This document shows, in pieces, positions 3,212 through 24,437 of a DNA stretch of 24,437 nt. Positions within the stretch are counted from its first letter, which is position 1. Each line of letters opens with the position of its first letter. Under the pieces are notes generated by a model. The model made no database searches. It was not told the origin of the DNA and saw only the letters and a list, made by a program, of their open reading frames with translations. This stretch comes from a virus (taxonomy: Duplodnaviria; Caudoviricetes), in the IMG/VR virus record IMGVR_UViG_3300005804_000006, positions 1-24,437 of that record; one strand, written 5' to 3'. The position numbers and the translations under genes are program-made.

Positions 3212-3707
3212 TGTTTTCTCCTTTTCTGTTCGTTTCTATCCAATAAACAGCGTAGAAAACGCTCCAATATCCCCACTTGACGCCTATTCCAACTCCGCGC
3301 AAGTGTATATTTCCTTTGTCATATTTACCTTTACCAATGGCAAGTGTCGGAAGAAGCAAGAAGTCGTCTTCATCGCGCCTTCCGTCTGATATGAAACCAT
3401 ATTTGTATATCTTCCGCCTTATCTTCGATGATTCGAGTTTTGGCATCTTGCTATACAGCCGAGCTTCGTTCAGAGCCTCAAGTTGTTCAACGTTCAATTT
3501 AGCCGAATGATCGACGACTATTTCAAGATTGCGAAGTCCCTTAACGTGTTCCATTCTTAGCCAAGAAGGAGAAACTATCTTCAGGTCGCTTCTATTGCAT
3601 TTGTTGGCTAAATCCATAGGATAATAAATATGACCGTCACGCCAGACGAATATTGCGTTCTTTGGCGCATTTTTGATCTGTTTTGTGGTTATTCCTGAAC
3701 CGCGCAT
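3198..3707 (-). CDS. hypothetical protein, possibly two fused small genes
   Basis: AAGGAG RBS; N-half RGSGITT...IVVDH (degenerate P-loop-like phage family); unrelated hydrophobic C-half. Confidence 0.6.
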   Translation of the reverse strand: MRGSGITTKQIKNAPKNAIFVWRDGHIYYPMDLANKCNRSDLKIVSPSWLRMEHVKGLRNLEIVVDHSAKLNVEQLEALNEARLYSKMPKLESSKIRRKIYKYGFISDGRRDEDDFLLLPTLAIGKGKYDKGNIHLRGVGIGVKWGYWSVFYAVYWIETNRKGENNASI

Positions 3708-3863: not shown

Positions 3864-4805
3864 TTAGAAATTCTTATCCGCCAATACTGCATTGCCACAC
3901 GTAATACGGCTTTCGTCTTCTTCTTTCGAAGCAATGAACGTCAGTACGTCAAAACCGGCTTTTTTCAGATTGTATTCGTCTTCCTCGTAGGGATACGATT
4001 CGGTATAGTCTCCGTCAGTTTCTATTCCGTTGTTAAGTGCTGAAGTGGTCTTGTGCATAGGGGTTAGTTTGCATATAAAATCGTCAGGATTGAAAAGAGA
4101 TGAAAGAAAACTAGCATCAATCTCGTATCCAGCTATGGCAAAATTGAGCGTGTATTTTCTTCCTTTTGGCCTTTCCATACGCTTCATCATTTCAGATATA
4201 TGGGCAAGATGAAGCGCGTTTTCTGAAAACATTTCGTTCCGCTCTCTGAAGCTAGTTGAGTTTATCGAAAGTTGTAACCCGGCTTCTCCGCCGTAATAGT
4301 CGTTTTTAATCTGACACCACTTCCATATAAAATGCTCCAAATTCTTGTTTTTCGCTGGCATCATTGTCGATACGACGGGATGAACGTGAAAGTCAGAGAG
4401 GGCGTACTTTATCAGCACGGCAGAGTCGAGAACGGCAGGGTTCCACGTCGGCTCACCCATGCGGGCATAATGTACGTTGAAACGCTCGGTTGACTTGATT
4501 TCACTGTGAAGGTCTCGAACGGTCATAACTTGGCCCATGATGTCGTCGAGTGTGGCGTTTATCCCTGGCCCGCATTTGGGAACATCACAAAATCGGCACC
4601 CGGAAGAACATCCGTATTGCGTTGATATGGTACATACCCACTTTACTGACAACGGCAATAGATTTGTGTGCTCAACCTTTTTATGTTGATTGAGGTTTAC
4701 CGCCTGTCCATAATCGCCAAGAGACAGGCATTCAAGCCTCCCTTTTTCTCCACGTACAATAAAAATATTTCCCGTAGGAACTTCGATGTTTTTAAGAATT
4801 TCCAT
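3864..4805 (-). CDS. RlmN/Cfr-like radical SAM protein
   Basis: CTISTQYGCSSGCRFC (CxxxCxxC preceded by the RlmN-type Cys), RMGEP, LQLSINS and C-terminal TCG (RlmN ACG-like); AAGGAG RBS. Confidence 0.8.
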   Translation of the reverse strand: MEILKNIEVPTGNIFIVRGEKGRLECLSLGDYGQAVNLNQHKKVEHTNLLPLSVKWVCTISTQYGCSSGCRFCDVPKCGPGINATLDDIMGQVMTVRDLHSEIKSTERFNVHYARMGEPTWNPAVLDSAVLIKYALSDFHVHPVVSTMMPAKNKNLEHFIWKWCQIKNDYYGGEAGLQLSINSTSFRERNEMFSENALHLAHISEMMKRMERPKGRKYTLNFAIAGYEIDASFLSSLFNPDDFICKLTPMHKTTSALNNGIETDGDYTESYPYEEDEYNLKKAGFDVLTFIASKEEDESRITCGNAVLADKNF

Positions 4806-4819
4806 TATCTTCTCCTTTC

Positions 4820-6496
4820 TTACGACGCGCTCAGTAACCTAATCGACTTCATCTTATAGTTGCTTCCGAAAAGCTCGTTCGCTTCCACGATTCCAGTCTC
4901 TTCCTTCGCTTCACTCGGAGACTTAACCCACCCATTCAGCCTTCCGGCTTCGATGTTCAGCTTTTTCATAAACTCTTGGTTCAATCTGACGTGAATCGTG
5001 CCTTTCTTGTACGCCCGAACGTCCATAAATAGCGTTCCGTCTGCCATGCGGAATTCGTTCAACAGTCCCGGCTCCCATTGAAGATCCATACTTGTCGTTT
5101 CAACGTCGAATCCGAGGTTTTTCGCTACGGTACAGAGGTCGCCTAGAAGCGTATGAACCTCGACTTGAAGCCCGTTAGGATGATCGTATGAATATCCGCC
5201 GAAGCAGTTTCCGCGCATGAGAACAAGTCGATAATCCAGGGTATAGTGCGTGTGTTCCCTTGCCGCATAGCGCCATTTGTCGGTTAAAACTACCTTGTTC
5301 GACTTGTAGTTTCGGATGTTTTCGGTTTCAGCAAGCTCGAAATATACTTCTAAAAGCTGTTTGTCGAAGTATTTGTTCGCGTTTTTTACGGCCCATATTA
5401 CGACGGCGTAGGCGTTCGCGGAGGTGAAGTCAACCGAAGTATGTTCGGTCAACGTCGCAAGTAGTTTTTCACGGCTTTTTGAGGTCAACCGGTTCGTGAT
5501 CGAGTCTAAGTTTGTGAAAAGCTCTTTCCAGTAAAGGTTTTTCAACCCTTCAATCTTGAACGAAAGCCCGCCTTTCACTTGCTTGAGGTCAACGCCTAGT
5601 TCTTTGAATAGGGACGAATCGAGTTGTTCCAGGGCTTTGTAGGTTGTGAACAGTTTAGCCATATCCGCATGGTACAGTTCTTCAAGGCGTTCGATTATGT
5701 TTTGGCCTTTTACCAGATTGTGCAACTTCTCTTCTTTGGTTTCTTTCTCGACAACTTCTTTTTTATCCTTATCGGCGGAAATAGAAAAGTTTTCCTCGAA
5801 CCAGATATCAAACGGATCGACGGCTAGTTTAACCGCGCGGTATCCGTTGTCTCGAAATTTGATCTTGAGAATATCGACGTTAGCGCGGGCCTTGCGGAAT
5901 TCGGAGTCAAGGAAGGTATCGGAAAGTAGTACTTTGCATTCGCCCTGTTGTTTTCGGTATTCCTCGCGTATCCGCTTCTTTAGCTTGGATTCGCCTTGCA
6001 TGTCCTGGTCATCGTCTTTCAGGTCGCATCGCCGGTTTATCATTTCCACGATCTTTCTGTTTTCTTTCCAGCGCTGCGGAACTACCATATAGACGATCCG
6101 ACAATTCGCCTCAGACACGATTCGGCGCATCCAAGTATCAAATTCAGAGTACGGAGGATTGCAGAATACAACGTCAACTTGCTTGTCGATCAAGGTCTGT
6201 TGGTGAAAGTCTGTTCCGATGATGAAGACATCTTCCGGCAGTGAATCGATAAGGATCTTCGATTTCTCGATAGCGTATTTCTTGCCGTCGTTTCGGGTCA
6301 ATTCGCACATGATATTCAGGGCGCTTCCGTTACCGGCCCCGATGTCGAGAATGGAGAAATTCCGGAGATGATCGGTATACGAGTCGTCGAATTCTTGACA
6401 GATGTCTTTTGCGACGGCTTCAAGCATGCGCTTGCTAGTAAGATAAAATTCATGATCCTGACCGGCTTCCTTCACTTTTTCAAGCAAATCGGTCAT
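4820..6496 (-). CDS. large amino-group DNA methyltransferase (DUF4942-like C-terminus)
   Basis: EFYLT, ILDIGAGNG (SAM binding), FCNPPY (catalytic); C-terminal RAYKKGTIHV; start placed at ATG 6496 after AAGGA. Confidence 0.75.
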   Translation of the reverse strand: MTDLLEKVKEAGQDHEFYLTSKRMLEAVAKDICQEFDDSYTDHLRNFSILDIGAGNGSALNIMCELTRNDGKKYAIEKSKILIDSLPEDVFIIGTDFHQQTLIDKQVDVVFCNPPYSEFDTWMRRIVSEANCRIVYMVVPQRWKENRKIVEMINRRCDLKDDDQDMQGESKLKKRIREEYRKQQGECKVLLSDTFLDSEFRKARANVDILKIKFRDNGYRAVKLAVDPFDIWFEENFSISADKDKKEVVEKETKEEKLHNLVKGQNIIERLEELYHADMAKLFTTYKALEQLDSSLFKELGVDLKQVKGGLSFKIEGLKNLYWKELFTNLDSITNRLTSKSREKLLATLTEHTSVDFTSANAYAVVIWAVKNANKYFDKQLLEVYFELAETENIRNYKSNKVVLTDKWRYAAREHTHYTLDYRLVLMRGNCFGGYSYDHPNGLQVEVHTLLGDLCTVAKNLGFDVETTSMDLQWEPGLLNEFRMADGTLFMDVRAYKKGTIHVRLNQEFMKKLNIEAGRLNGWVKSPSEAKEETGIVEANELFGSNYKMKSIRLLSAS

Positions 6497-6550
6497 CTTT
6501 CGTCCTTTGTTATCAAAAGTCATACACCTACAGTTTTATGACCTATAGTT

Positions 6551-7181: not shown

Positions 7182-7333
7182 ACAACAGAATGGGTAAGGC
7201 AATATCCGAATATGCAAAAGCAAGAGAAGCCCGAGCGAACATTAAAAGCATAAGAACAAACGAATACAAGCTCGCATGTATAGCGGTAGAAAAAGCCGCA
7301 AGAAGAATATGCAAACTAAAGGAGTCACAATGA
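7178..7333 (+). CDS. small basic hypothetical protein (51 aa)
   Basis: MNNRMGKAISEYAKAREA...; ATGA overlaps at both ends. Confidence 0.5.
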   Translation: MNNRMGKAISEYAKAREARANIKSIRTNEYKLACIAVEKAARRICKLKESQ

Positions 7334-7674
7334 ACAACCTGAATTCAGTACTCATCGAAGGCAACATAGTTGCCGATCCCGAACTGCAAACTACTTCAGA
7401 AGGAAAATCGATATGCATGTTTTCAGTAGCATCAGACCGATTCTCCAAAAAAGGCGAAGAGATCGAAAAAGAAACATCTTTTTTTGACATCGTATCATAC
7501 TCTCGCCTCGCAGAAAGTTGCGCCGACCTAGGAAAGAAAGGACGCGGCGTTCGTGCAGTAGGAAGACTCAAACAAGATCGCTGGACTGACCCATTCAACG
7601 GACAGGCTATGAGCAGGATTGTCATAATCGCCGAACACGTCGAATTCAGGCCGGAATTCAAAGCTAAGTCGTAA
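7330..7674 (+). CDS. ssb: single-stranded DNA-binding protein (spirochaete-like, no acidic tail)
   Basis: MNNLNSVLIEGN..DPE...KGRGVRAVGRLKQDRW...IAEHVEF OB-fold motifs; AAGGAG RBS before ATG 7330. Confidence 0.9.
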   Translation: MNNLNSVLIEGNIVADPELQTTSEGKSICMFSVASDRFSKKGEEIEKETSFFDIVSYSRLAESCADLGKKGRGVRAVGRLKQDRWTDPFNGQAMSRIVIIAEHVEFRPEFKAKS

Positions 7675-10440: not shown

Positions 10441-10893
10441 TCACCTCGCACTTGTGATTCTTAGTGCATACGCTCTCGTCCTTTCCGGCGCATTAACCAC
10501 GCGCCCGCAGTTATAGAAAACAAGAGCCTGATACCAGTTTCCGAACCGTTCATGAAGGTCTGCCAAATACCGAAGCCCTACCGTCGCGTTGTGAAGAGGG
10601 TTTTCGATGTCGAATTCCCCGCCTTCCCAATACTGAGACAAGAGCCAATTCAGGTTAGACGGCTTTTCGTAAAGCTGGAAAAGCCCGCGAGAACTATATC
10701 CGTCAACCTTTTTGCTTACAGCCTTCGCGTATCCGCCTGATTCTTCGTGCATCAACGCTCGCGTGATTGATCGTGGAATGCCTGAAGCGTCTCCGATCTC
10801 GATTACTTTGACGTATGTTTCCCTTGAAATCTTCTCAGAAAAAGCAATCTGAGAACAGACAAGAAGCATGGCGCATATCAGTTTAATCGCCAT
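10441..10893 (-). CDS. lytic transglycosylase (SLT) with signal-peptide-like N-terminus
   Basis: ESGG, GLFQL and YNCG motifs; ATG 10893 after GAGG; hydrophobic leader MAIKLICAMLLVCSQIAFS. Confidence 0.85.
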   Translation of the reverse strand: MAIKLICAMLLVCSQIAFSEKISRETYVKVIEIGDASGIPRSITRALMHEESGGYAKAVSKKVDGYSSRGLFQLYEKPSNLNWLLSQYWEGGEFDIENPLHNATVGLRYLADLHERFGNWYQALVFYNCGRVVNAPERTRAYALRITSAR

Positions 10894-11020: not shown

Positions 11021-11340
11021 TGCACTTTCTCCTTTCTAAGTAATTTATTCTGAACAGTAAGAATTTTGTTCTTGCTTTCGATTACTTCCATGTATGCGTC
11101 AAGAACAAAAACAGTGAACACGTCTTTATCAGAGGGTTTCGGGTTTCTTCCGGTGTTTTGATAGAATCGATGACAAGCCAGTTTCCATGTCCCTTGGTGA
11201 ATCGGAGGTAATCCAAAATCTGACGGCTTGTAATATTTCTTCGAGATCTTAACGACGGCCTTACGTCCTGGACACGTTGCACAATCAACCGACTCGTTTG
11301 GGACTCCGTGATCGTCGAAACAACGTCCGTCACAGTTCAT
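11017..11340 (-). CDS. hypothetical protein
   Basis: ORF track; AAGGAG RBS; ATGA overlap. Confidence 0.6.
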   Translation of the reverse strand: MNCDGRCFDDHGVPNESVDCATCPGRKAVVKISKKYYKPSDFGLPPIHQGTWKLACHRFYQNTGRNPKPSDKDVFTVFVLDAYMEVIESKNKILTVQNKLLRKEKVQ

Positions 11341-11634: not shown

Positions 11635-12012
11635 TCACTTCAGTTCAGCCGCAATCATCCTTCCCTTCACTTCTTCTACGAGCTTGTCAAAGTCTTCTTT
11701 CTTCATTCGGCCCATCGCTACCCGCAGAAACTGGTCGGCGAAATCTAGTCCGGGGAATTCAAGAGCATGTCTGGCGGTCTTCAGTTGCGCGATGTTCAGT
11801 TCGTAAATCCTGAGCGCATCGCACGTCCTGTCTTCCCAGTCCTCTCCGCGTCCTTTCAGTCCGGCTGCGACGGTTCTGTCGTTTTCAGCAAGCTGGTTCT
11901 TGATATTCGTTATTGCTTTCTCGCACTCGAATATATACGCTTCAAGCTCGCTTTCCGTAAGAATAGACGGCTCGATTGTGTGCTTTTCCATGTTAAGCCT
12001 GATGGTCATCAT
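11635..12012 (-). CDS. hypothetical coiled-coil protein
   Basis: ATGA overlap with the portal gene; AAGGAG RBS. Confidence 0.6.
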   Translation of the reverse strand: MMTIRLNMEKHTIEPSILTESELEAYIFECEKAITNIKNQLAENDRTVAAGLKGRGEDWEDRTCDALRIYELNIAQLKTARHALEFPGLDFADQFLRVAMGRMKKEDFDKLVEEVKGRMIAAELK

Positions 12013-13478
12013 TTCTTTGCTCCTTTTCCGAAAAGTGCGTTTATCCTATCCCCTACGTCGGTATCGCCTTCGCGGAGTTTTTCACGGATTTCGTCTATCT
12101 CAAGCCGCAGTTTGGTGAACGCAAGCGCCTTGTTTTTCTCTTCGTCGAACGTTCCAGAGACTGGTATGAACTGCTTTAGGGCATTGAACGCGGTATCGGG
12201 AGACACGAGGTTCAGCTCCATGGCTTTTCCAAGAGCGGTCATGAGTGAAGCAAAGGCGTTCATGAGAGCAACGTCATCTTTCACCGTTACTTCAGGCCAT
12301 TTCACTTCAACATTCCCTACATCACGGAACATCTCGCGGCCAGACTCGGCGTTCATCATGGCAAGGTATGTGTCAGCCAACCAATAAAAAAACTCGTCAA
12401 ACTCACCCTGCTTTCCGTCAACCTTCTTTGCCCATACCGGGGATTGTTCGCTTACGCTGGCGTTCGTAGAGTTCATCGCCGCGCCGTACAGGTATTCCGG
12501 CATGGTCAGTTCGATGATGATGAAGTAAAGAAGTTCGAGCATCTTCATGGCGGCGGGGCTTCGGTCTTCTTTTTGAAGGTATTTTATCTCGTCATTCTGA
12601 CCGGAAAGGAACCCGCTTTGAAACTGTTCGGGAGATACCTTGACTCCGCCTTGCTTCAATTGTTCATCGGTAAGGGAGAAAGACAGCTTCAAGAAGTCAT
12701 TCATGCCGGAAGTGATCCTGAAAATCATCCTCGGAATGAGCCCGTCTGAAATATGCCGCCCGAGCTTTCGCATGATCTGATCGTATCTCTGAATGAACGG
12801 TACCGCCGGGGCAATTTCAGGGATTCCATCGGCTATGTAGGTCTGCTTATTATTTACCTGGCAGAAAACGGGAACGAAATCGACATTGATAGCATTCTCG
12901 CCTTCGTCTTTTTCAAGGTATGCCGGACGTGTTCCACTTATCAGTTTCCAGGATTCTTTTTTCGGTTCAAGCGTCCACTGAATCTCTAAAGCATGACCGT
13001 CTTTATCTTGTTCCTTGATTGAAAAAACAAGTTTCTTGTATCCGCCGGACATATCGCGTTCGGATTCTTTTTCGTTTACAAGCTCTCTCTGAATCTGACG
13101 GATAACGATTATCGGGCCTTTCGGGCTTTCCTCGACCCGTAGCCATACGTAGTGTTTCCCGTCTACTAGAGCCTGTTGGATAATCGCAAGAAGTTTCGAC
13201 CGTCCGCGCTTTACCCAACTATTCAGCGATTCGGTAAACTCGTTATTAGCCGAACTAAATTCGGGAATTCCGACGTACCACGAAAACGTGTTGATAAACG
13301 TCTTCGTGCAGAAATTGCCGAGTTGATAGCTTTCCTGTTCGTTCTCTCGGATCGGATACCCGACGTACAAAGACCGAGAAAGATTGAAGTCGGTTTTTAT
13401 CGCGGTGAAGACATCTTTTTCGCCTTCTATGGTTATGAAAATACGGTTCACAAATCTTTGAAGGCCGTCAAAAATCAT
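12009..13478 (-). CDS. portal protein
   Basis: 489 aa; ALVDGKHY, GIPEI and MPEYLYG patterns; gene order terL > this > gpF-like > protease; GGAGG RBS. Confidence 0.75.
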   Translation of the reverse strand: MIFDGLQRFVNRIFITIEGEKDVFTAIKTDFNLSRSLYVGYPIRENEQESYQLGNFCTKTFINTFSWYVGIPEFSSANNEFTESLNSWVKRGRSKLLAIIQQALVDGKHYVWLRVEESPKGPIIVIRQIQRELVNEKESERDMSGGYKKLVFSIKEQDKDGHALEIQWTLEPKKESWKLISGTRPAYLEKDEGENAINVDFVPVFCQVNNKQTYIADGIPEIAPAVPFIQRYDQIMRKLGRHISDGLIPRMIFRITSGMNDFLKLSFSLTDEQLKQGGVKVSPEQFQSGFLSGQNDEIKYLQKEDRSPAAMKMLELLYFIIIELTMPEYLYGAAMNSTNASVSEQSPVWAKKVDGKQGEFDEFFYWLADTYLAMMNAESGREMFRDVGNVEVKWPEVTVKDDVALMNAFASLMTALGKAMELNLVSPDTAFNALKQFIPVSGTFDEEKNKALAFTKLRLEIDEIREKLREGDTDVGDRINALFGKGAKK

Positions 13479-13499
13479 CTTCCCCTCCGCTTTTGTAAT

Positions 13500-13528
13500 A
13501 TCGTATCATAGATGTTATAATAATTCAA
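13500..13528 (-). promoter_or_regulatory. putative portal promoter
   Basis: TTGAAT-17 nt-TACGAT. Confidence 0.6.
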
Positions 13529-13552
13529 TAACTGATTATTGTTAATTGGTAG

Positions 13553-13570
13553 ATATGTGATTATTTATTA
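13553..13570. repeat. 18-bp upstream box, copy 2
   Basis: ATATGTGATTATTTATTA; 24 bp from the -35 hexamer, the same distance as copy 1. Confidence 0.75.
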
Positions 13571-13577
13571 CTTTGCG

Positions 13578-13613
13578 CAACGTGTAAGAAACATTTACAC
13601 GTTGATATTTTTT
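13578..13613. terminator. hairpin, possible terminator
   Basis: CAACGTGTAA / TTACACGTTG perfect 10-bp stem; a T-run follows on the plus strand only. Confidence 0.4.
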
Positions 13614-13620
13614 CCCTAAG

Positions 13621-13671
13621 TAAACGAAACGCGGCGAGCGTAGCGAGTCGAGTTAAAGCAGTTGTTCTACG
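13621..13671 (-). repeat. degenerate attC site (cassette C)
   Basis: GTAGAAC-AACTG-CTTTAAC-TCGAC left arm intact; right arm (CGCGTT TCGTTTAC) eroded. Confidence 0.55.
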
Positions 13672-14104
13672 CCCCGGCAGTCTGGTTAAGCCTCTTTCTG
13701 TACTCATCCAACTCATGGAGTTTTGAAAAGTCAGATACGCGAATGATGTACCCACCAGTCACGATTTTCTCGCCAAGTAAACTTGTTCCTTTTTTGTATC
13801 TCTCCTTGGTTGTCGGGTCAAAAAGAACTTCGCTTCCTTGCATGATGATGGCATGGCTTCCGCCTTCATAGTTCTTGCTTTTGACACTGGCAATCCATGG
13901 GGATTCTGACCAGATAGGGCCGTCTGCGTTATGGAATGTTAGCTCAAGGCCGAATTGCCCAAGGTACATCCGCTGTATTGCCATCCAGTAATTGCTATGG
14001 TCGTTCGGGATTACCTCAATAGGCAATTCGAGCAGACTTGCAAGGCAAGCCGGAAAACAATCGCCGTATTGATGATGCACAATTCTTTGTCGTACTCGTT
14101 TCAT
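13667..14104 (-). CDS. cassette C: putative papain-fold (C39-like) cysteine peptidase
   Basis: Q...GDCFPACLAS...HAII...FDP (Cys-His-Asp order); AGGAG RBS; stop codon lies inside R''. Confidence 0.55.
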   Translation of the reverse strand: MKRVRQRIVHHQYGDCFPACLASLLELPIEVIPNDHSNYWMAIQRMYLGQFGLELTFHNADGPIWSESPWIASVKSKNYEGGSHAIIMQGSEVLFDPTTKERYKKGTSLLGEKIVTGGYIIRVSDFSKLHELDEYRKRLNQTAGA

Positions 14105-14174
14105 TTTGTTGTCTCCTGCCGGGGCTTGGCGTGTGTCCGTATAAGCGCCCCGTGCTTATACGGCTAAAACGTCC

Positions 14175-14236
14175 GTAGAACATTTGCTTAACCTGCAAGG
14201 CCGTTAGGGCTTGTCAGGTTGAAGCATGTGTTATAC
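14175..14236 (-). repeat. attC site (cassette B)
   Basis: GTATAAC-ACATG-CTTCAAC-CTGACAAG...CTTGCAG-GTTAAG-CAAAT-GTTCTAC: 5-nt spacers, and unpaired C and A at the extrahelical positions. Confidence 0.85.
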
Positions 14237-14692
14237 GTCCTTCCTTCCTCTCAAAATAAATTGAGCTATATGCCTTCCTGTCCCTTTACCCGTGGATCCA
14301 TCTTCTATGGCGCACCATTTTATATCACCAAGGTTTCGCACTTCCGCTCCGGCGGCTAGAAGCATGAGTATCCATTTGTCGATTGGATAGACAATAACAA
14401 CGTTTTTACCTTTTTTCATTTCCTCAATAGCTTTACGCATCCACGCGGTTGGGCCTTTCTTCTTTCCTTGGTGGATGATGGATCCGAATGGAGGATTGAC
14501 GTAGCTTGATTCACCCCATTCGCAAGTAAGGCCGTCAAAATCTTCCGGCTTAGGGAAAGGGCATGGATCAAAATCTATTCCAAACTCCGCTCTTATTTGC
14601 TCCATAAGCTCCGGCGGTGTAAGCCAATAATGCTTCCCATCATTACCGTTTCCCTTGTGGAACTTATTATCTGCCGGTGCAAGCTTCTTCAA
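14231..14692 (-). CDS. cassette B: phage-type N6-adenine DNA methyltransferase (Dam-like)
   Basis: YWLTPP, DFDPC and YVNPPF motifs; TTG start after AAAGGAG; TAA stop lies inside R''. Confidence 0.75.
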   Translation of the reverse strand: MKKLAPADNKFHKGNGNDGKHYWLTPPELMEQIRAEFGIDFDPCPFPKPEDFDGLTCEWGESSYVNPPFGSIIHQGKKKGPTAWMRKAIEEMKKGKNVVIVYPIDKWILMLLAAGAEVRNLGDIKWCAIEDGSTGKGTGRHIAQFILRGRKDV

Positions 14693-14748
14693 TTCTTTCT
14701 CCTTTGCACGAAGTCAGGAAACGATTTATTGTTTCCTGCGTAGTGTCC

Positions 14749-14809
14749 GTATAACATTAAGTTAACCTTCGAAGTCGCAGACTTCGTAAGGTTGAACTTG
14801 TTGTTCGAC
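14749..14809 (-). repeat. attC site (cassette A)
   Basis: GTCGAAC-AACAA-GTTCAAC-CTTACGAAGTC-TGC-GACTTCGAAG-GTTAAC-TTAAT-GTTATAC; same extrahelical C and A. Confidence 0.85.
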
Positions 14810-15001
14810 GCCGCCGCACTTACAGCTTGTTATCCTTTCACACCATTGGCCCGTAAAGCGCGGTTCAACAGTGCAACCATCTGCAATCCATTCGCCCAAT
14901 ATTTTACCAGCGTCTTTTCTATCGGTTCTGATGTAATCGAGCGCGCCAACTATTGCGCCACACTGGCAAATTGCTACAAATCCTGTCGGTTTCTTTTTCA
15001 T
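14762..15001 (-). CDS. cassette A: small Cys-rich hypothetical protein
   Basis: AAGGAG RBS; CQCG...CKC; the C-terminal residues are read through the attC. Confidence 0.65.
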   Translation of the reverse strand: MKKKPTGFVAICQCGAIVGALDYIRTDRKDAGKILGEWIADGCTVEPRFTGQWCERITSCKCGGVEQQVQPYEVCDFEG

Positions 15002-15091
15002 TGCAACTCCTTCGCGGCGGCTTGGTTGACCGTCCGCATGACGCAGTTATGCGGCGCGTCAATCCGTCGAACTATTATTATCCCGGTCAGT

Positions 15092-15376
15092 CTAACTTCC
15101 CTCTGCCCACCCCAGCACCGCGCGAGCCCTCATCACCGCCTCACGGTCCGCCTGTAGCTCGACGTATCCGAACCGCGTGTCGGCCTTGAGAGCGTCTCCG
15201 GAGCAGGCAATCAGGTCGGAGATGATGTCGCGGAGGTCCTGCACCTCCTGCTCTTGGCATACGGCGTATCCGGCTCCGATTCGCTTTTCGATCTTCGCCC
15301 ACTCATCGCGACAGAACTGAAACCGAAGCGTCCGGTCAGTATGGTCGCCAGCCACCAGTTGCCCGAAAGCGCTCAT
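15092..15376 (-). CDS. hypothetical protein
   Basis: GGGGAG RBS; ATGA overlap. Confidence 0.55.
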   Translation of the reverse strand: MSAFGQLVAGDHTDRTLRFQFCRDEWAKIEKRIGAGYAVCQEQEVQDLRDIISDLIACSGDALKADTRFGYVELQADREAVMRARAVLGWAEGS

Positions 15377-18279: not shown

Positions 18280-19734
18280 TCACCACATGCCCCTGAGTAT
18301 CTCAAACGCCTTTTTCTTGTCGATGTCGTTGCTCGTATCTGGTTCGAGGTAGTTTATTCCGTGGACCATGGCGTCCATGCGGTCGGGGGACTTGCTTCCG
18401 GGTATCCAGTTGCACAACTGCTCTTCCAACTTGGCAAAAGGATCGTCTTTTTCGACGTAAGTTGTCATGTCACGGTAAAAGTGAATTCGCCCCCGTTGCA
18501 TGATCGTTGATACCGGCATCGCCCGAGCCGCCTTGTCCTTGACGGCGTGGACCTTTTCGATTCTAGTTGTTACCCCGGCGTTTATGAGGGTCGATACGAC
18601 CATATCGCCGCCTTGATTATCTTCCACTACCACACATCCGGCTTCTTGTGAGACTTGATTAACTTTCGATCCCCATTCGTAAGGTGTTCCTTGTAACGAA
18701 TTATCGCCGACAATATAAAAGTGCGTCATTTCCTTGTTTCGCACCTCAGATCCCGAAGCTAATTCTTTCGGCGCTACAGCTTCGTATATCGTGATAATTC
18801 CCGTCTCGTCCGATTCGTCCTCATGCGTGATAGCCGGGTCAACGGCAACGATAACGCGCCGTATCTGATCCACTCTAGGAAGTGAGAACACGCGATCCCT
18901 GGAAATCCACTCACGCTTGAATAGAGCGTTCGGATTGTCGTCCATGATCTGCGCGTTTAGTTCCTGTTCGCCTAACCTGGTTCCTTCGTATTGCGAAATA
19001 ATAGAAGCTGCAAATTCGTCAGCAAGATTCTCAATATTTTCATAAGTCGAGACAACCGTTGTAATGGTGCTAGGCCGCTTCCTGCGGTCCTTGCGGGCTT
19101 CAATTTCCCTAGTGAATTTCGTTGGCTTGGGCGTAGACGTATTGATACACAATAGCGGAGCTTCGCCTTTTATGCGCAACGCCATCATAATATTTTCAAA
19201 GGCTTCTTCGGGATACTGCCATTTATGGACTTCATCGCACCAGACCAATTGGATATTGTTTCCACGCGCCGCCTCACGATCCGAACCGTACAGAATGTAC
19301 GTTATCGCACCATTCGGCCACTCCAATTCCATCTTTTGCGTTTTATGGACCGGCTTGAACTTCGGATTGCAGTTTTTCATGATTCCAGACGGCCCGTATA
19401 TTTGGATACGCGACACGTCACCCGCCGTAGCACCGGCAAGAGCGGAATACTTATATAGCCCTGATTCTATAAGCGTCCTGAAAACGTTGCTTCCGGTGTA
19501 TGTTTTTCCGGTTCCTCGGCCCCAGCGCATGTTCCAGATAAAACAACCATTCTTCCCCCACTCTGGCGGAGGAAGTTGGCTATCGCGGGCCTTGTATTTC
19601 CATGCGTAGCGGAGATATTCAAGTTGTTCAGGTGAAAGACTACGGATATAGGCGTCGGCGTCATCCTTGGGAAGCGCTAGAAGATCCTTGACCGTCAGGT
19701 CCGTTGTCTTTCGCACGAGCGCGTCTATCATCAA
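18280..19734 (-). CDS. terL: terminase large subunit
   Basis: Walker A GRGTGKT, Walker B VWCDE, TSTP, nuclease motifs VAVDPA and SPDRMDA. Confidence 0.92.
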   Translation of the reverse strand: MMIDALVRKTTDLTVKDLLALPKDDADAYIRSLSPEQLEYLRYAWKYKARDSQLPPPEWGKNGCFIWNMRWGRGTGKTYTGSNVFRTLIESGLYKYSALAGATAGDVSRIQIYGPSGIMKNCNPKFKPVHKTQKMELEWPNGAITYILYGSDREAARGNNIQLVWCDEVHKWQYPEEAFENIMMALRIKGEAPLLCINTSTPKPTKFTREIEARKDRRKRPSTITTVVSTYENIENLADEFAASIISQYEGTRLGEQELNAQIMDDNPNALFKREWISRDRVFSLPRVDQIRRVIVAVDPAITHEDESDETGIITIYEAVAPKELASGSEVRNKEMTHFYIVGDNSLQGTPYEWGSKVNQVSQEAGCVVVEDNQGGDMVVSTLINAGVTTRIEKVHAVKDKAARAMPVSTIMQRGRIHFYRDMTTYVEKDDPFAKLEEQLCNWIPGSKSPDRMDAMVHGINYLEPDTSNDIDKKKAFEILRGMW

Positions 19735-21852: not shown

Positions 21853-22503
21853 TCAACGATAACAAGAGAAGGCGTAAATACGAATACTTCGGGGATTATG
21901 TCCCTTGGCGCACCATCTTTCAAAGTCTTCCAGGTAGTTCACCCGAAGCCATTCAAGCGACGGCCCCTTGTAAACGTCGATATTCCTGAATCCGGCGTAT
22001 GTTTCAGGGGCTAAAATGAGCTTTTCTTTCTTCAAGTACCAGTCTATATCTTTTTTCGCCCATAAATGAAGCGGCGCAAGTTTCTTGTTTTTCCAGTCAA
22101 TTCCATTATCAAATGTCTTGAGCATACAAGCGCGAGCCATTGATTCGCACGCTTCCCATCCAAGGGCGATCCATTCGATATCGTATTTATCTCGCAAGAG
22201 CGCGAACGTATCTTTCATCTGCAAGCGTTTTATGTTCTTCCCTTCACGACTAAGAAGATAGGTTGTTTCAAAGTGAGGGTATTGGTCGATTTCGATTCCG
22301 TATCGGTTTTCGTAGTATCGGATTACCTTGTTTTTACTTTCCATGTTGTCGCAATAATACAGAAAAACGGCCTTGAACCGTCCAGGCATGTACCTTTGGA
22401 ACAGGTCAAGCATTACCGTTGAGTCTTTTCCTAACGAATACAGTACAATGGCGGATTTTACGTTTCCCGCCATGTACTGTATTGAGCCGAAGAGGTTCTT
22501 CAC
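21853..22503 (-). CDS. PAPS-reductase-like PP-loop protein
   Basis: YSLGKDS PP-loop; LGWEACES..R; APLHLW. Confidence 0.75.
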   Translation of the reverse strand: MKNLFGSIQYMAGNVKSAIVLYSLGKDSTVMLDLFQRYMPGRFKAVFLYYCDNMESKNKVIRYYENRYGIEIDQYPHFETTYLLSREGKNIKRLQMKDTFALLRDKYDIEWIALGWEACESMARACMLKTFDNGIDWKNKKLAPLHLWAKKDIDWYLKKEKLILAPETYAGFRNIDVYKGPSLEWLRVNYLEDFERWCAKGHNPRSIRIYAFSCYR

Positions 22504-23839: not shown

Positions 23840-24437
23840 ATGGATAAGAAAGAATACGCCGAAAAGAAACAAGCCGAAGTCAAAGCCATGATGAAAGAGC
23901 TTGCAGACAAGCTCGTTTCTTCGGAAGAAGTCGCCGGATTTTTGAACAAAAAAATGTACATTTTGAATGACGGATCTATTCCGTGCGCTAAGTGGTCAAT
24001 TATGAATCAATTTCATATTCTGACACTCGGAACGTGCGACGCTCGCGGATACGACCAGTGGAAGCAAGCCGGACGCCAAGTCAAGAAAGGCGCACATGCC
24101 GCTCATATTCTTGTTCCGTGTTTTAAAAAAGAAGAGAACGACGGAGAAGAAATTGAAATCCTCAAGTTCTTCAAAACCGTTCCAGTTTTTCGTGCCGAAG
24201 ACACCGAAGGTGAAGCGCTTCCGTATGCAGACAAGCTCGCGGCGCTGAATGAAAACGTTCCAGCCCTTCCGCTTCTCGAAGTCGCTAAGAAACTTGAACT
24301 TTCCGTCTCATTCAGTTTCTCACCTGGGGCGTATTACGGCTATTTCTGCGCTTCCGAAAATAGAATTGTCCTCTGCACCGATGCCGAACAGACCTTTTTC
24401 CATGAGCTTGCACACGCCGTAGATCACAAGCTAGGTT
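23840..24437 (+). CDS. ArdC-like ssDNA-binding/zincin antirestriction protein (runs off window)
   Basis: WSIMNQ, RGYDQWKQAGRQVKKG, VPVF..EDTEG, then FFHELAH (HExxH). Confidence 0.8.
   Translation, partial: MDKKEYAEKKQAEVKAMMKELADKLVSSEEVAGFLNKKMYILNDGSIPCAKWSIMNQFHILTLGTCDARGYDQWKQAGRQVKKGAHAAHILVPCFKKEENDGEEIEILKFFKTVPVFRAEDTEGEALPYADKLAALNENVPALPLLEVAKKLELSVSFSFSPGAYYGYFCASENRIVLCTDAEQTFFHELAHAVDHKLG

Follow-up and report, generated by a model that had tools for sequence, protein, structure and literature searches.

Arrays of attC sites in phages have been published as such, the system of TJE1 among them. In that work, Qi, Rajabal, Ghaly, Tetu and Gillings (2023, PMC9892861) describe 17 phage CALINs and report that 5 of 6 tested sites recombine under IntI1, two attC sites of TJE1 recombining with attI1 under this integrase. 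A CALIN, in the sense of IntegronFinder (Cury et al. 2016, PMC4889954), possesses two or more attC sites with no intI nearby, and the definition contains no attI. Cassettes also come to lie outside a full integron by attG insertion, where IntI inserts at any GWT and the consensus is GWT only (Loot et al., 10.1101/2022.09.11.507474). Spirochaete chromosomes, those of Treponema among them, are known to carry sedentary integrons (Wu et al. 2013, PMC3607928). How cassettes arise is stated to be unknown (Cury 2016, PMC4889954; Loot 2017, PMC5371416). The terms R'', L'' and EHB and the integration model used below follow the papers cited here.

The present analysis deals with a linear virus record of 24,437 bases, which was analysed in its entirety and is called the window; by a completeness estimate, it makes up about 25% of the phage genome. 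It carries an integrase-less phage integron platform, which is real and represents a variant of the published kind with an unpublished anatomy. According to our main reading, to which we assign a probability of about 0.8 from sequence comparison, the array is equipped with an attI-like entry site, while the sequenced part of the phage encodes no integrase, and uptake of cassettes likely depends on the integron integrase of the host, probably a spirochaete.

The closest described system is TJE1 (L474, HQ225832), which has three attC sites with the same boxes as the window and no intI. A long hairpin following the R box at the cassette start, here called the leader, is found in two of its three cassettes with a strict parser, its first cassette has a closing stem, as in the window, and its methylase cassette carries the R-box pair of the window's cassette B. 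The window thus has the attC boxes, the entry site and the long leader of a TJE1-type phage cassette system, yet the two phages have no ORF in common at E 1e-10. In the available part of the TJE1 paper (PMC9892861), leaders, closing stems, frame reuse and the link to spirochaetes are not mentioned, and a literature search that left most subscription journals outside its reach returned nothing on the entry site, the leader, the closing stem or frame reuse.

Location of the array

The array lies between the terminase and portal genes, immediately 5' of the latter. The earlier note had placed it in a phage packaging region, and the six coordinates and 8-mers given there are all correct on re-check. 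The terminase, portal and head genes are all on the minus strand.

18280 to 19734, minus strand: terminase large subunit, 5' context (PF03237, PF17289)
15092 to 15376, minus strand: upstream phage ORF of 94 aa without a family, its stop codon lying inside the upstream box of the entry site
12009 to 13478, minus strand: portal gene, 3' context (phrog_64, E 1.8e-5)
7276 to 7674, plus strand: SSB gene, a hint to the host (54% identity to an SSB in each of 3 spirochaete genomes)

The window contains two complete attC sites and no intI gene in the 9 kb and 13 kb that extend beyond the array, as in a CALIN, and a search for tyrosine recombinases gave no PF00589 match at E 10 anywhere in the 24.4-kb contig. 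Of the parts of a complete integron, the intI gene is thus absent from the window, while an attI, whose L and R boxes at the array head stand 4-5 bp apart (PMC12614218), is represented at the level of sequence by an L box, 5 nt and G/TT. No promoter above chance was detected 5' of the array (4 promoter-like sites vs 3.0 expected, none of them upstream on the array strand). The cassette genes would likely be read from the phage's own same-strand transcription.

A close relative of this phage was not found by portal among viral contigs, by DNA among 50,697 GenBank phages (two methyltransferase matches only), by TerL among 50 array-bearing records (one weak match only) or in an additional index of relatives. 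Since the window's TerL is without close kin among these 50 records, the cassette system spans unrelated phages. The one public run that covers the array, a freshwater sediment metagenome that is possibly the window's own source, has it in one contig with no variant or joint, and neither recombination nor a circle nor a transcript was seen. Wastewater runs X2/X3, from one sample, yielded a 397-base contig within ORF C with one difference and no flanks, which is uninformative on context.

Two further features of the window were noted outside the array. An 11-pair hairpin at 13578-13604, between cassette C and the portal gene, is terminator-like on the plus strand, and AT-rich promoter-like sites at 13493-13588 adjoin it. 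Genes of the modification and anti-restriction type comprise a DUF4942 methyltransferase (4820-6523), a radical SAM protein (3864-4805), a PAPS-reductase-like protein (21853-22503) and an ArdC-like N-terminal domain (23840-24436).

Cassettes and attC sites

14755 to 15071, minus strand: cassette A, 317 bp (89% identity over the full length to a cassette in contig L176, homology from exactly 15072)
14748 to 14810, minus strand: attC A, complete (score 12/12, bottom-strand fold z -5.1)
14181 to 14754, minus strand: cassette B, 574 bp (own R boxes match; frame shared with other genes in 10 further cassettes)
14174 to 14237, minus strand: attC B, complete (score 12/12, bottom-strand fold z -7.5; identical core on an unrelated cassette in L105)
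13634 to 14180, minus strand: cassette C, terminal, with a truncated attC (match to own R'')
13634 to 13671, minus strand: half attC C, consisting of R'', spacer, L'' and loop without the 3' arm (bottom-strand fold z +0.9, no fold)

In attC A and attC B, the structure scanner finds 7/7 L-box pairs, 5/5 further pairs, 5-nt spacers and extrahelical C and A on the top strand. The spacers and the two extrahelical bases described for two sites in the earlier note are thereby confirmed. These are the only two sites in the window that score at least 10, while in 300 windows simulated under an order-2 Markov model and scanned on both strands, a single site scored 11 and no site attained 11.5; an Rfam search returned two weak chance matches only. 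The earlier note had all three ORFs end in an attC-like site, which holds in full for A and B, while the third proves to be a half site. It has no L' and no usable GTT and does not qualify as a full attC, although an intact version of its type is present in L382. Such array ends are common, a terminal attC without its 3' arm or GTT being found in 9 of 43 examined, the window included.

Each cassette start also matches its own end, as had been claimed: in A, B and C, the cassette begins with 8 bases that are fully complementary to its own R'' (8/8 in each case) and not to that of the neighbour. In the wider set of cassettes, the corresponding own-match figure is no test, because these were selected for at least 4/5 own R-box matches; the match to the next cassette's box has a mode of 2/5.

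Entry site

15066 to 15096, minus strand: attI-like entry site (ranked first among 830 GTT positions by the profile built on 25 further array starts)

The entry site consists of an upstream box (15096-15090), 5 nt, an L box (15084-15078), 5 nt and the crossover G(15072)/TT, the same 7+5+7+5 layout as in the chromosomal attI candidates 3' of spirochaete intI genes. The phage profile was derived from 43 leader-bearing GTT positions outside the window that have no attC arm, from which 18, inside leaders, genes or weak attC arms, were dropped and 25 were picked by the analysts as array starts; most of these read box, 5 nt, inverted box, 5 nt, G/TT, and three poor fits were retained. The chromosomal set comprises 9 attI candidates, picked by the analysts from 15 intI regions, 3 of the 9 being confirmed by a matching first attC. 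With the phage profile, all 9 chromosomal candidates fall above the 99th percentile, and with the chromosomal profile, 21 of the 25 phage sites fall above the 95th, the window's own site ranking only 12/830. A direct search with the entry-site pattern returned 8 viral loci, in all of which a cassette leader follows. The earlier note had left the first junction as either a secondary or an attI-like site. The attI-like alternative stands, and the comparison supports a conserved attI-like site at this junction rather than a random secondary one.

We have also considered that the host integrase placed the first cassette at an unspecific genomic GWT, i.e., at an attG (10.1101/2022.09.11.507474), and that later cassettes followed. 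The window shares with attG insertion a cassette outside a full integron and a GWT crossover, entry sites occur beside many different genes, and no empty site was seen. However, the window adds two conserved boxes at fixed distances: the 24 bases 5' of the crossover are conserved among unrelated phages and match the chromosomal attI candidates, where an attG would show no conservation beyond GWT, and all 8 loci with the entry-site pattern lead into a cassette leader. Insertion at an attG is accordingly the least probable of the explanations weighed here, and very much so.

A dedicated entry site also sets the window apart from the CALIN definition (PMC4889954), with which it agrees in attC number and the lack of intI, and because this site has been retained, the array looks more like a functional platform supplied in trans than like a remnant. 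Phage CALINs would then be recast from passive remnants to platforms that would exploit the adaptation machine of the host. According to the main reading, the host IntI would, during infection, recombine a cassette circle, through its folded bottom strand, with the entry site in double-stranded form. With insertion at this position, A would be the newest cassette and stand first, and C would be the oldest, locked in by the loss of the 3' arm of its attC.

For TJE1, Qi et al. (PMC9892861) regard the element 5' of the array as a putative terminator that may have drawn in attC by off-target recombination. From its sequence, this "terminator" is the conserved entry site, with a 7+5+7+4 layout as compared to 7+5+7+5 in the window, and the 4-base spacer explains why it is missed by the 5-base profile. 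The TJE1 site lies at 49197-49219 and the array at 1-1513, so that the array spans the record ends; the shorter spacer may be real, or a base may have been lost where the ends were joined.

The related, complete phages G012 and G014 have a common upstream gene and entry site and diverge after GTTAG, so that one orthologous entry site is followed by different cassettes in the two. An empty entry site did not turn up, and at two other loci the array-less relative also lacks the entry site.

Three complete phages have two entry sites each (G014 at 3274 and 37828, G021 at 10669 and 25068, G049 at 14942 and 31475, minus-strand count). One of the G014 arrays lies between a stop codon and a terminator, where its relative G012 has about 22 bases and no site. 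A second entry-like site in the window (11044-11070, plus strand, at +11068) scores 14.7 vs 17.5; neither a leader nor an attC follows it, and it is probably a chance match.

Integrase and host

The attC-core pattern is found at 57 viral loci in 52 contigs and gives 119 matches in 118 genome loci, of which 81 are labelled Treponema or Spirochaet* by title count. Phage and chromosomal sites have their box sequences in common, which bears out the resemblance to Treponema attC sites that the earlier note had proposed. The integrases are distributed differently. In 50 phage records (from the 52 contigs), the IntI model TIGR02249 has no match over its cut-off and one weak partial match, and the 9 records that are at least 90% complete have none, whereas among 19 bacterial genomes carrying this attC type, 16 of which had been chosen for their spirochaete labels, 12 exceed the cut-off. 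The earlier note had proposed an integrase supplied from outside the phage and had called for a search for intI in phage and host; the absence of the gene from the window and from the 50 phage records, together with its presence in the bacterial genomes, agrees with that proposal. The SSB of the window points to the same hosts, with 32-35% identity in 2 other genomes vs 54% in the 3 spirochaete genomes (5 genomes compared, chosen by the analysts). The recorded host of TJE1, on the other hand, is an actinobacterium, which fits badly with a spirochaete-only reading.

The spirochaete chromosomal integrons (PMC3607928) share with the phage arrays the L and R boxes, the spacers and a similar attI layout, and 50 of 81 chromosomal cassettes have a G-[A]-hairpin right after the R box, a short form of the phage leader. 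They differ in having intI beside attI, cassettes three times longer, short leaders, no excess of closing stems and unrelated cargo. The median cassette length is 330 bp for 88 phage cassettes and 997 bp for 82 chromosomal ones, and blastp at E 1e-3 gives no cross-match between 84 phage and 49 chromosomal cargo proteins. DNA-modification genes make up 7 of 82 phage but 0 of 49 chromosomal cargo proteins, while PHROG matches fail to separate the two (22/82 vs 18/49); in all of these comparisons the chromosomal sample is small and mostly from oral Treponema. The phage-type character that had been proposed for the cargo is borne out by the comparison.

These differences bear on an alternative in which the array is a block captured from a host chromosomal integron and now decaying, as shown by Qi et al. 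(PMC9892861) for Vibrio prophages. The attC boxes and attI layout like those of spirochaete chromosomes and the truncated last attC would be expected from it. The two pools are nevertheless separate in cassette length and cargo, the long leader occurs in 0 of 81 chromosomal cassettes, and genes related to A, B and C are most often found standing alone in viral contigs, which makes block capture very improbable.

Some contigs of the genome collection carry phage-type long leaders (L211, L214, L221, L231, L324). The first of these is identical with viral record L112 and belongs to a Spirochaetales bin that has intI, whereas the other four were assigned to bins of unrelated taxa and could be phage contigs.

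Cassette mobility and frame reuse

The contig L176 belongs to a phage that has no long ORF in common with the window but carries cassette A. The homology begins exactly at G 15072, behind a different cassette in L176, spans attC A and the leader of B, and stops there; the next gene in L176 encodes a C5 cytosine methyltransferase instead of the Dam-like methyltransferase of B. Movement of a cassette as a unit is thus seen for A, at its left end only. Integration at G/TT, for which the earlier note had suggested a comparison of breakpoints in related phages, agrees with the L176 breakpoint, which is exactly G/TT, and with the divergence of G012 and G014 after GTTAG.

The frames, in turn, are shared by unrelated genes. 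In the set of 84 cassettes, all 15 leader families with at least two members hold more than one cargo family, a count for which blastp is insensitive on short proteins and in which trimming split one true homolog pair, and 14 cases of identical attC cores on unrelated cargo were found. The leader of B heads 11 distinct ORFs, namely four N6/N4, one C5 and one MT-A70 methyltransferase, the Dam-like enzyme of the window, one methyltransferase called by PHROG and three small proteins of no known kind, so that this frame holds four Pfam methyltransferase families; at two further loci there is no callable ORF, and three more pattern matches are chance. The reuse of frames and the sharing of attC cores indicate that the leader with its R boxes, the gene and the attC core reassort. 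We infer from these sequences that genes are replaced inside existing frames, probably by ordinary phage recombination, although no intermediate of such a replacement was caught. One frame around unrelated genes with free-standing phage relatives makes intermediate states comparable and the joints testable, and such shared frames may show how new cassettes are made.

The same data raise the question of whether IntI is needed at all. Sites of integron descent could now be shuffled by homologous or short-homology recombination in the shared leaders and attC cores, or by an unseen phage recombinase, which could lie in the missing part since the window holds only about a quarter of the genome. A crossover inside a shared leader would give the end of the L176 homology after the leader of B, and the 14 identical attC cores on unrelated cassettes would fit equally well. 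RecT/ERF-like genes, presumably of this kind from a reading by eye, adjoin some arrays, an ERF being named in TJE1. However, matching of the R boxes within a cassette together with exact G/TT breakpoints is the product of circle integration and not of homologous exchange, the extrahelical bases and spacers are preserved in some 60 distinct phage attC cores, and the IntI model has no match in any of the nine near-complete phages. We therefore consider shuffling independent of IntI unlikely and retain integration by a host IntI as the preferred reading, with phage recombination acting inside the frames.

Leader hairpins and closing stems

15021 to 15064, minus strand: leader hairpin of cassette A (two-stem form, with an A bulged out behind the R box)
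14706 to 14747, minus strand: leader hairpin of cassette B (no closing stem in the B frame)
14125 to 14173, minus strand: leader hairpin of cassette C (predicted fold)
15014 to 15020, minus strand: closing stem A, 5' arm (7/7 pairs with 14811-14817; compensatory change in L176)
14811 to 14817, minus strand: closing stem A, 3' arm (directly 5' of R'')
14116 to 14124, minus strand: closing stem C, 5' arm (9/9 pairs with 13672-13680)
13672 to 13680, minus strand: closing stem C, 3' arm (pairs with 14116-14124)

The leader has the order R box, G, bulged A, hairpin. Its long two-stem form is present in 61 of 82 distinct phage leaders, those of A, B and C included, as compared to 0 of 81 chromosomal ones and 0.01 in shuffles, and the short form in the 50 chromosomal cassettes mentioned above against 5.3 in shuffles; GA after the R box was partly a selection criterion for these counts. 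The bottom strand, which is the strand used by IntI at attC (PMC5371416), folds better in 61 leaders vs 19 for the top strand, or in 36 vs 12 of 49 leader families (p 7e-4), and shuffled leaders have no strand bias with DNA energies. In the inner stem, top-strand mismatches are A-C 24 times vs G-T 4 times, which disfavours a leader acting as a top-strand RNA; the leader may act as an antisense RNA. A role as promoter receives no support from the promoter scan. By eye, the CYAAR motif of the leader does not covary strictly with the R box in pairing, and none of 366 loci was matched by a general leader pattern written by hand.

The closing stem is formed between the bases 5' of R'' and the bases 3' of the leader. 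Such cognate pairing occurs in 30 of 89 phage cassettes vs 7.7% of non-cognate pairs, an excess reached by 0 of 200 permutations and absent from 82 chromosomal cassettes. When the stem is anchored at the end motif of the leader, the two arms pair at 7 or 8 of 8 positions in 18 of 35 distinct cases, vs 0.3%, and 17 different arm sequences occur. In the window, cassette A has a closing stem of 7 bp and cassette C one of 9 bp, and B has none. The arms meet attC only in the circle, where cassette A is predicted to form a three-way junction. The model gives -44.8 kcal/mol for this circle vs -24.4 kcal/mol at the array junction, where the downstream sequence is different, and for cassette B there is no gain (-32.4 versus -35.1 kcal/mol). 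Alternatively, the closing stem may take part in long-range mRNA pairing over the ribosome-binding site.

The cassettes would be drawn from a phage-specific pool that shares a frame of R boxes, leader hairpin and, in about a third, closing stem. In the circle, this frame is predicted to adopt a three-way junction next to attC. It is possible, though doubtful in our judgment, that unrelated phages share a phage-only cassette economy run by host IntI, with attI mimics, genes dropped into a recyclable frame and a three-way junction that IntI recognises. If true, this economy would be a visible route of cassette genesis, and the attC substrate would extend beyond the textbook hairpin.

In cassettes without a closing stem, the sequence before R'' is purine-rich (e.g., 14238-14251 in the window) and resembles the ribosome-binding site of the next gene, which would fit gene capture from phage operons at such tracts. 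The spirochaete IntI open frames (L327, L328, L331-L334) are 397-497 aa long and have an N-terminal extension beyond the 315-position model, which is a candidate for binding an accessory hairpin.

Cargo

14762 to 15001, minus strand: ORF A, small protein of 79 aa, Cys-rich and without a known family (88 homologs; no Pfam/PHROG/Atlas match)
14231 to 14692, minus strand: ORF B, Dam-like adenine methyltransferase of 153 aa (residues 66-69 read NPPF; R'' contains the stop codon)
13667 to 14104, minus strand: ORF C, predicted cysteine peptidase of 145 aa with a papain fold, C39-like (R'' contains the stop codon)

The reading frame of A extends into attC A, which supplies about the last 17 codons. 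This attC-derived tail is missing from most of the 88 homologs, which cover only about 78% of the protein. ORF B matches Pfam PF05869 at E 1.1e-5, below the gathering cut-off, and phrog_111 at E 3e-17, and it has 281 viral relatives, the best 80 of which are 69-81% identical. Orphan phage methyltransferases have an established anti-restriction function. A role of this kind is plausible for ORF B, as Qi et al. (2023, PMC9892861) likewise argue, and one possible use of the system is the swapping of methyltransferases against restriction systems.

ORF C is predicted to be a C39-like cysteine peptidase. Its Q6, C16, H84 and D96, which we take to be the C39 catalytic pattern, are invariant in 28 homologs, and its model (pLDDT 86) has uncharacterised phage proteins as best structural matches and, within the PDB, the PCAT1 peptidase domain (E 1.6e-3, TM 0.55), while a sequence search of the PDB gave no match.

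Among relatives with at least 50% identity, a same-strand attC follows in 1 of 31 for A, 0 of 75 for B and 0 of 7 for C, and a metagenome search with alignment A1 added 4 close relatives of C, none of them in a cassette. Opposite-strand attC sites of other types adjoin 2 of the A relatives and 6 of the 75 B relatives, and the remainder look like ordinary genes. Most members of the cargo families thus stand alone in phages, and genes of these families have entered cassettes on more than one occasion.

The opposite-strand arrays are those of L008, L015, L021, L023, L036 and L055 for B and of L194 and L195 for A, and the inverted orientation of these relatives indicates that the same gene families entered a second cassette system. 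Elsewhere, a 369-aa RtcB RNA ligase, far above the usual size of phage cassettes, occurs as a cassette in L104 (5362-6471) and L135 (5059-6168), the two being 87% identical, and a Mom-like gene is present as a cassette in L082.
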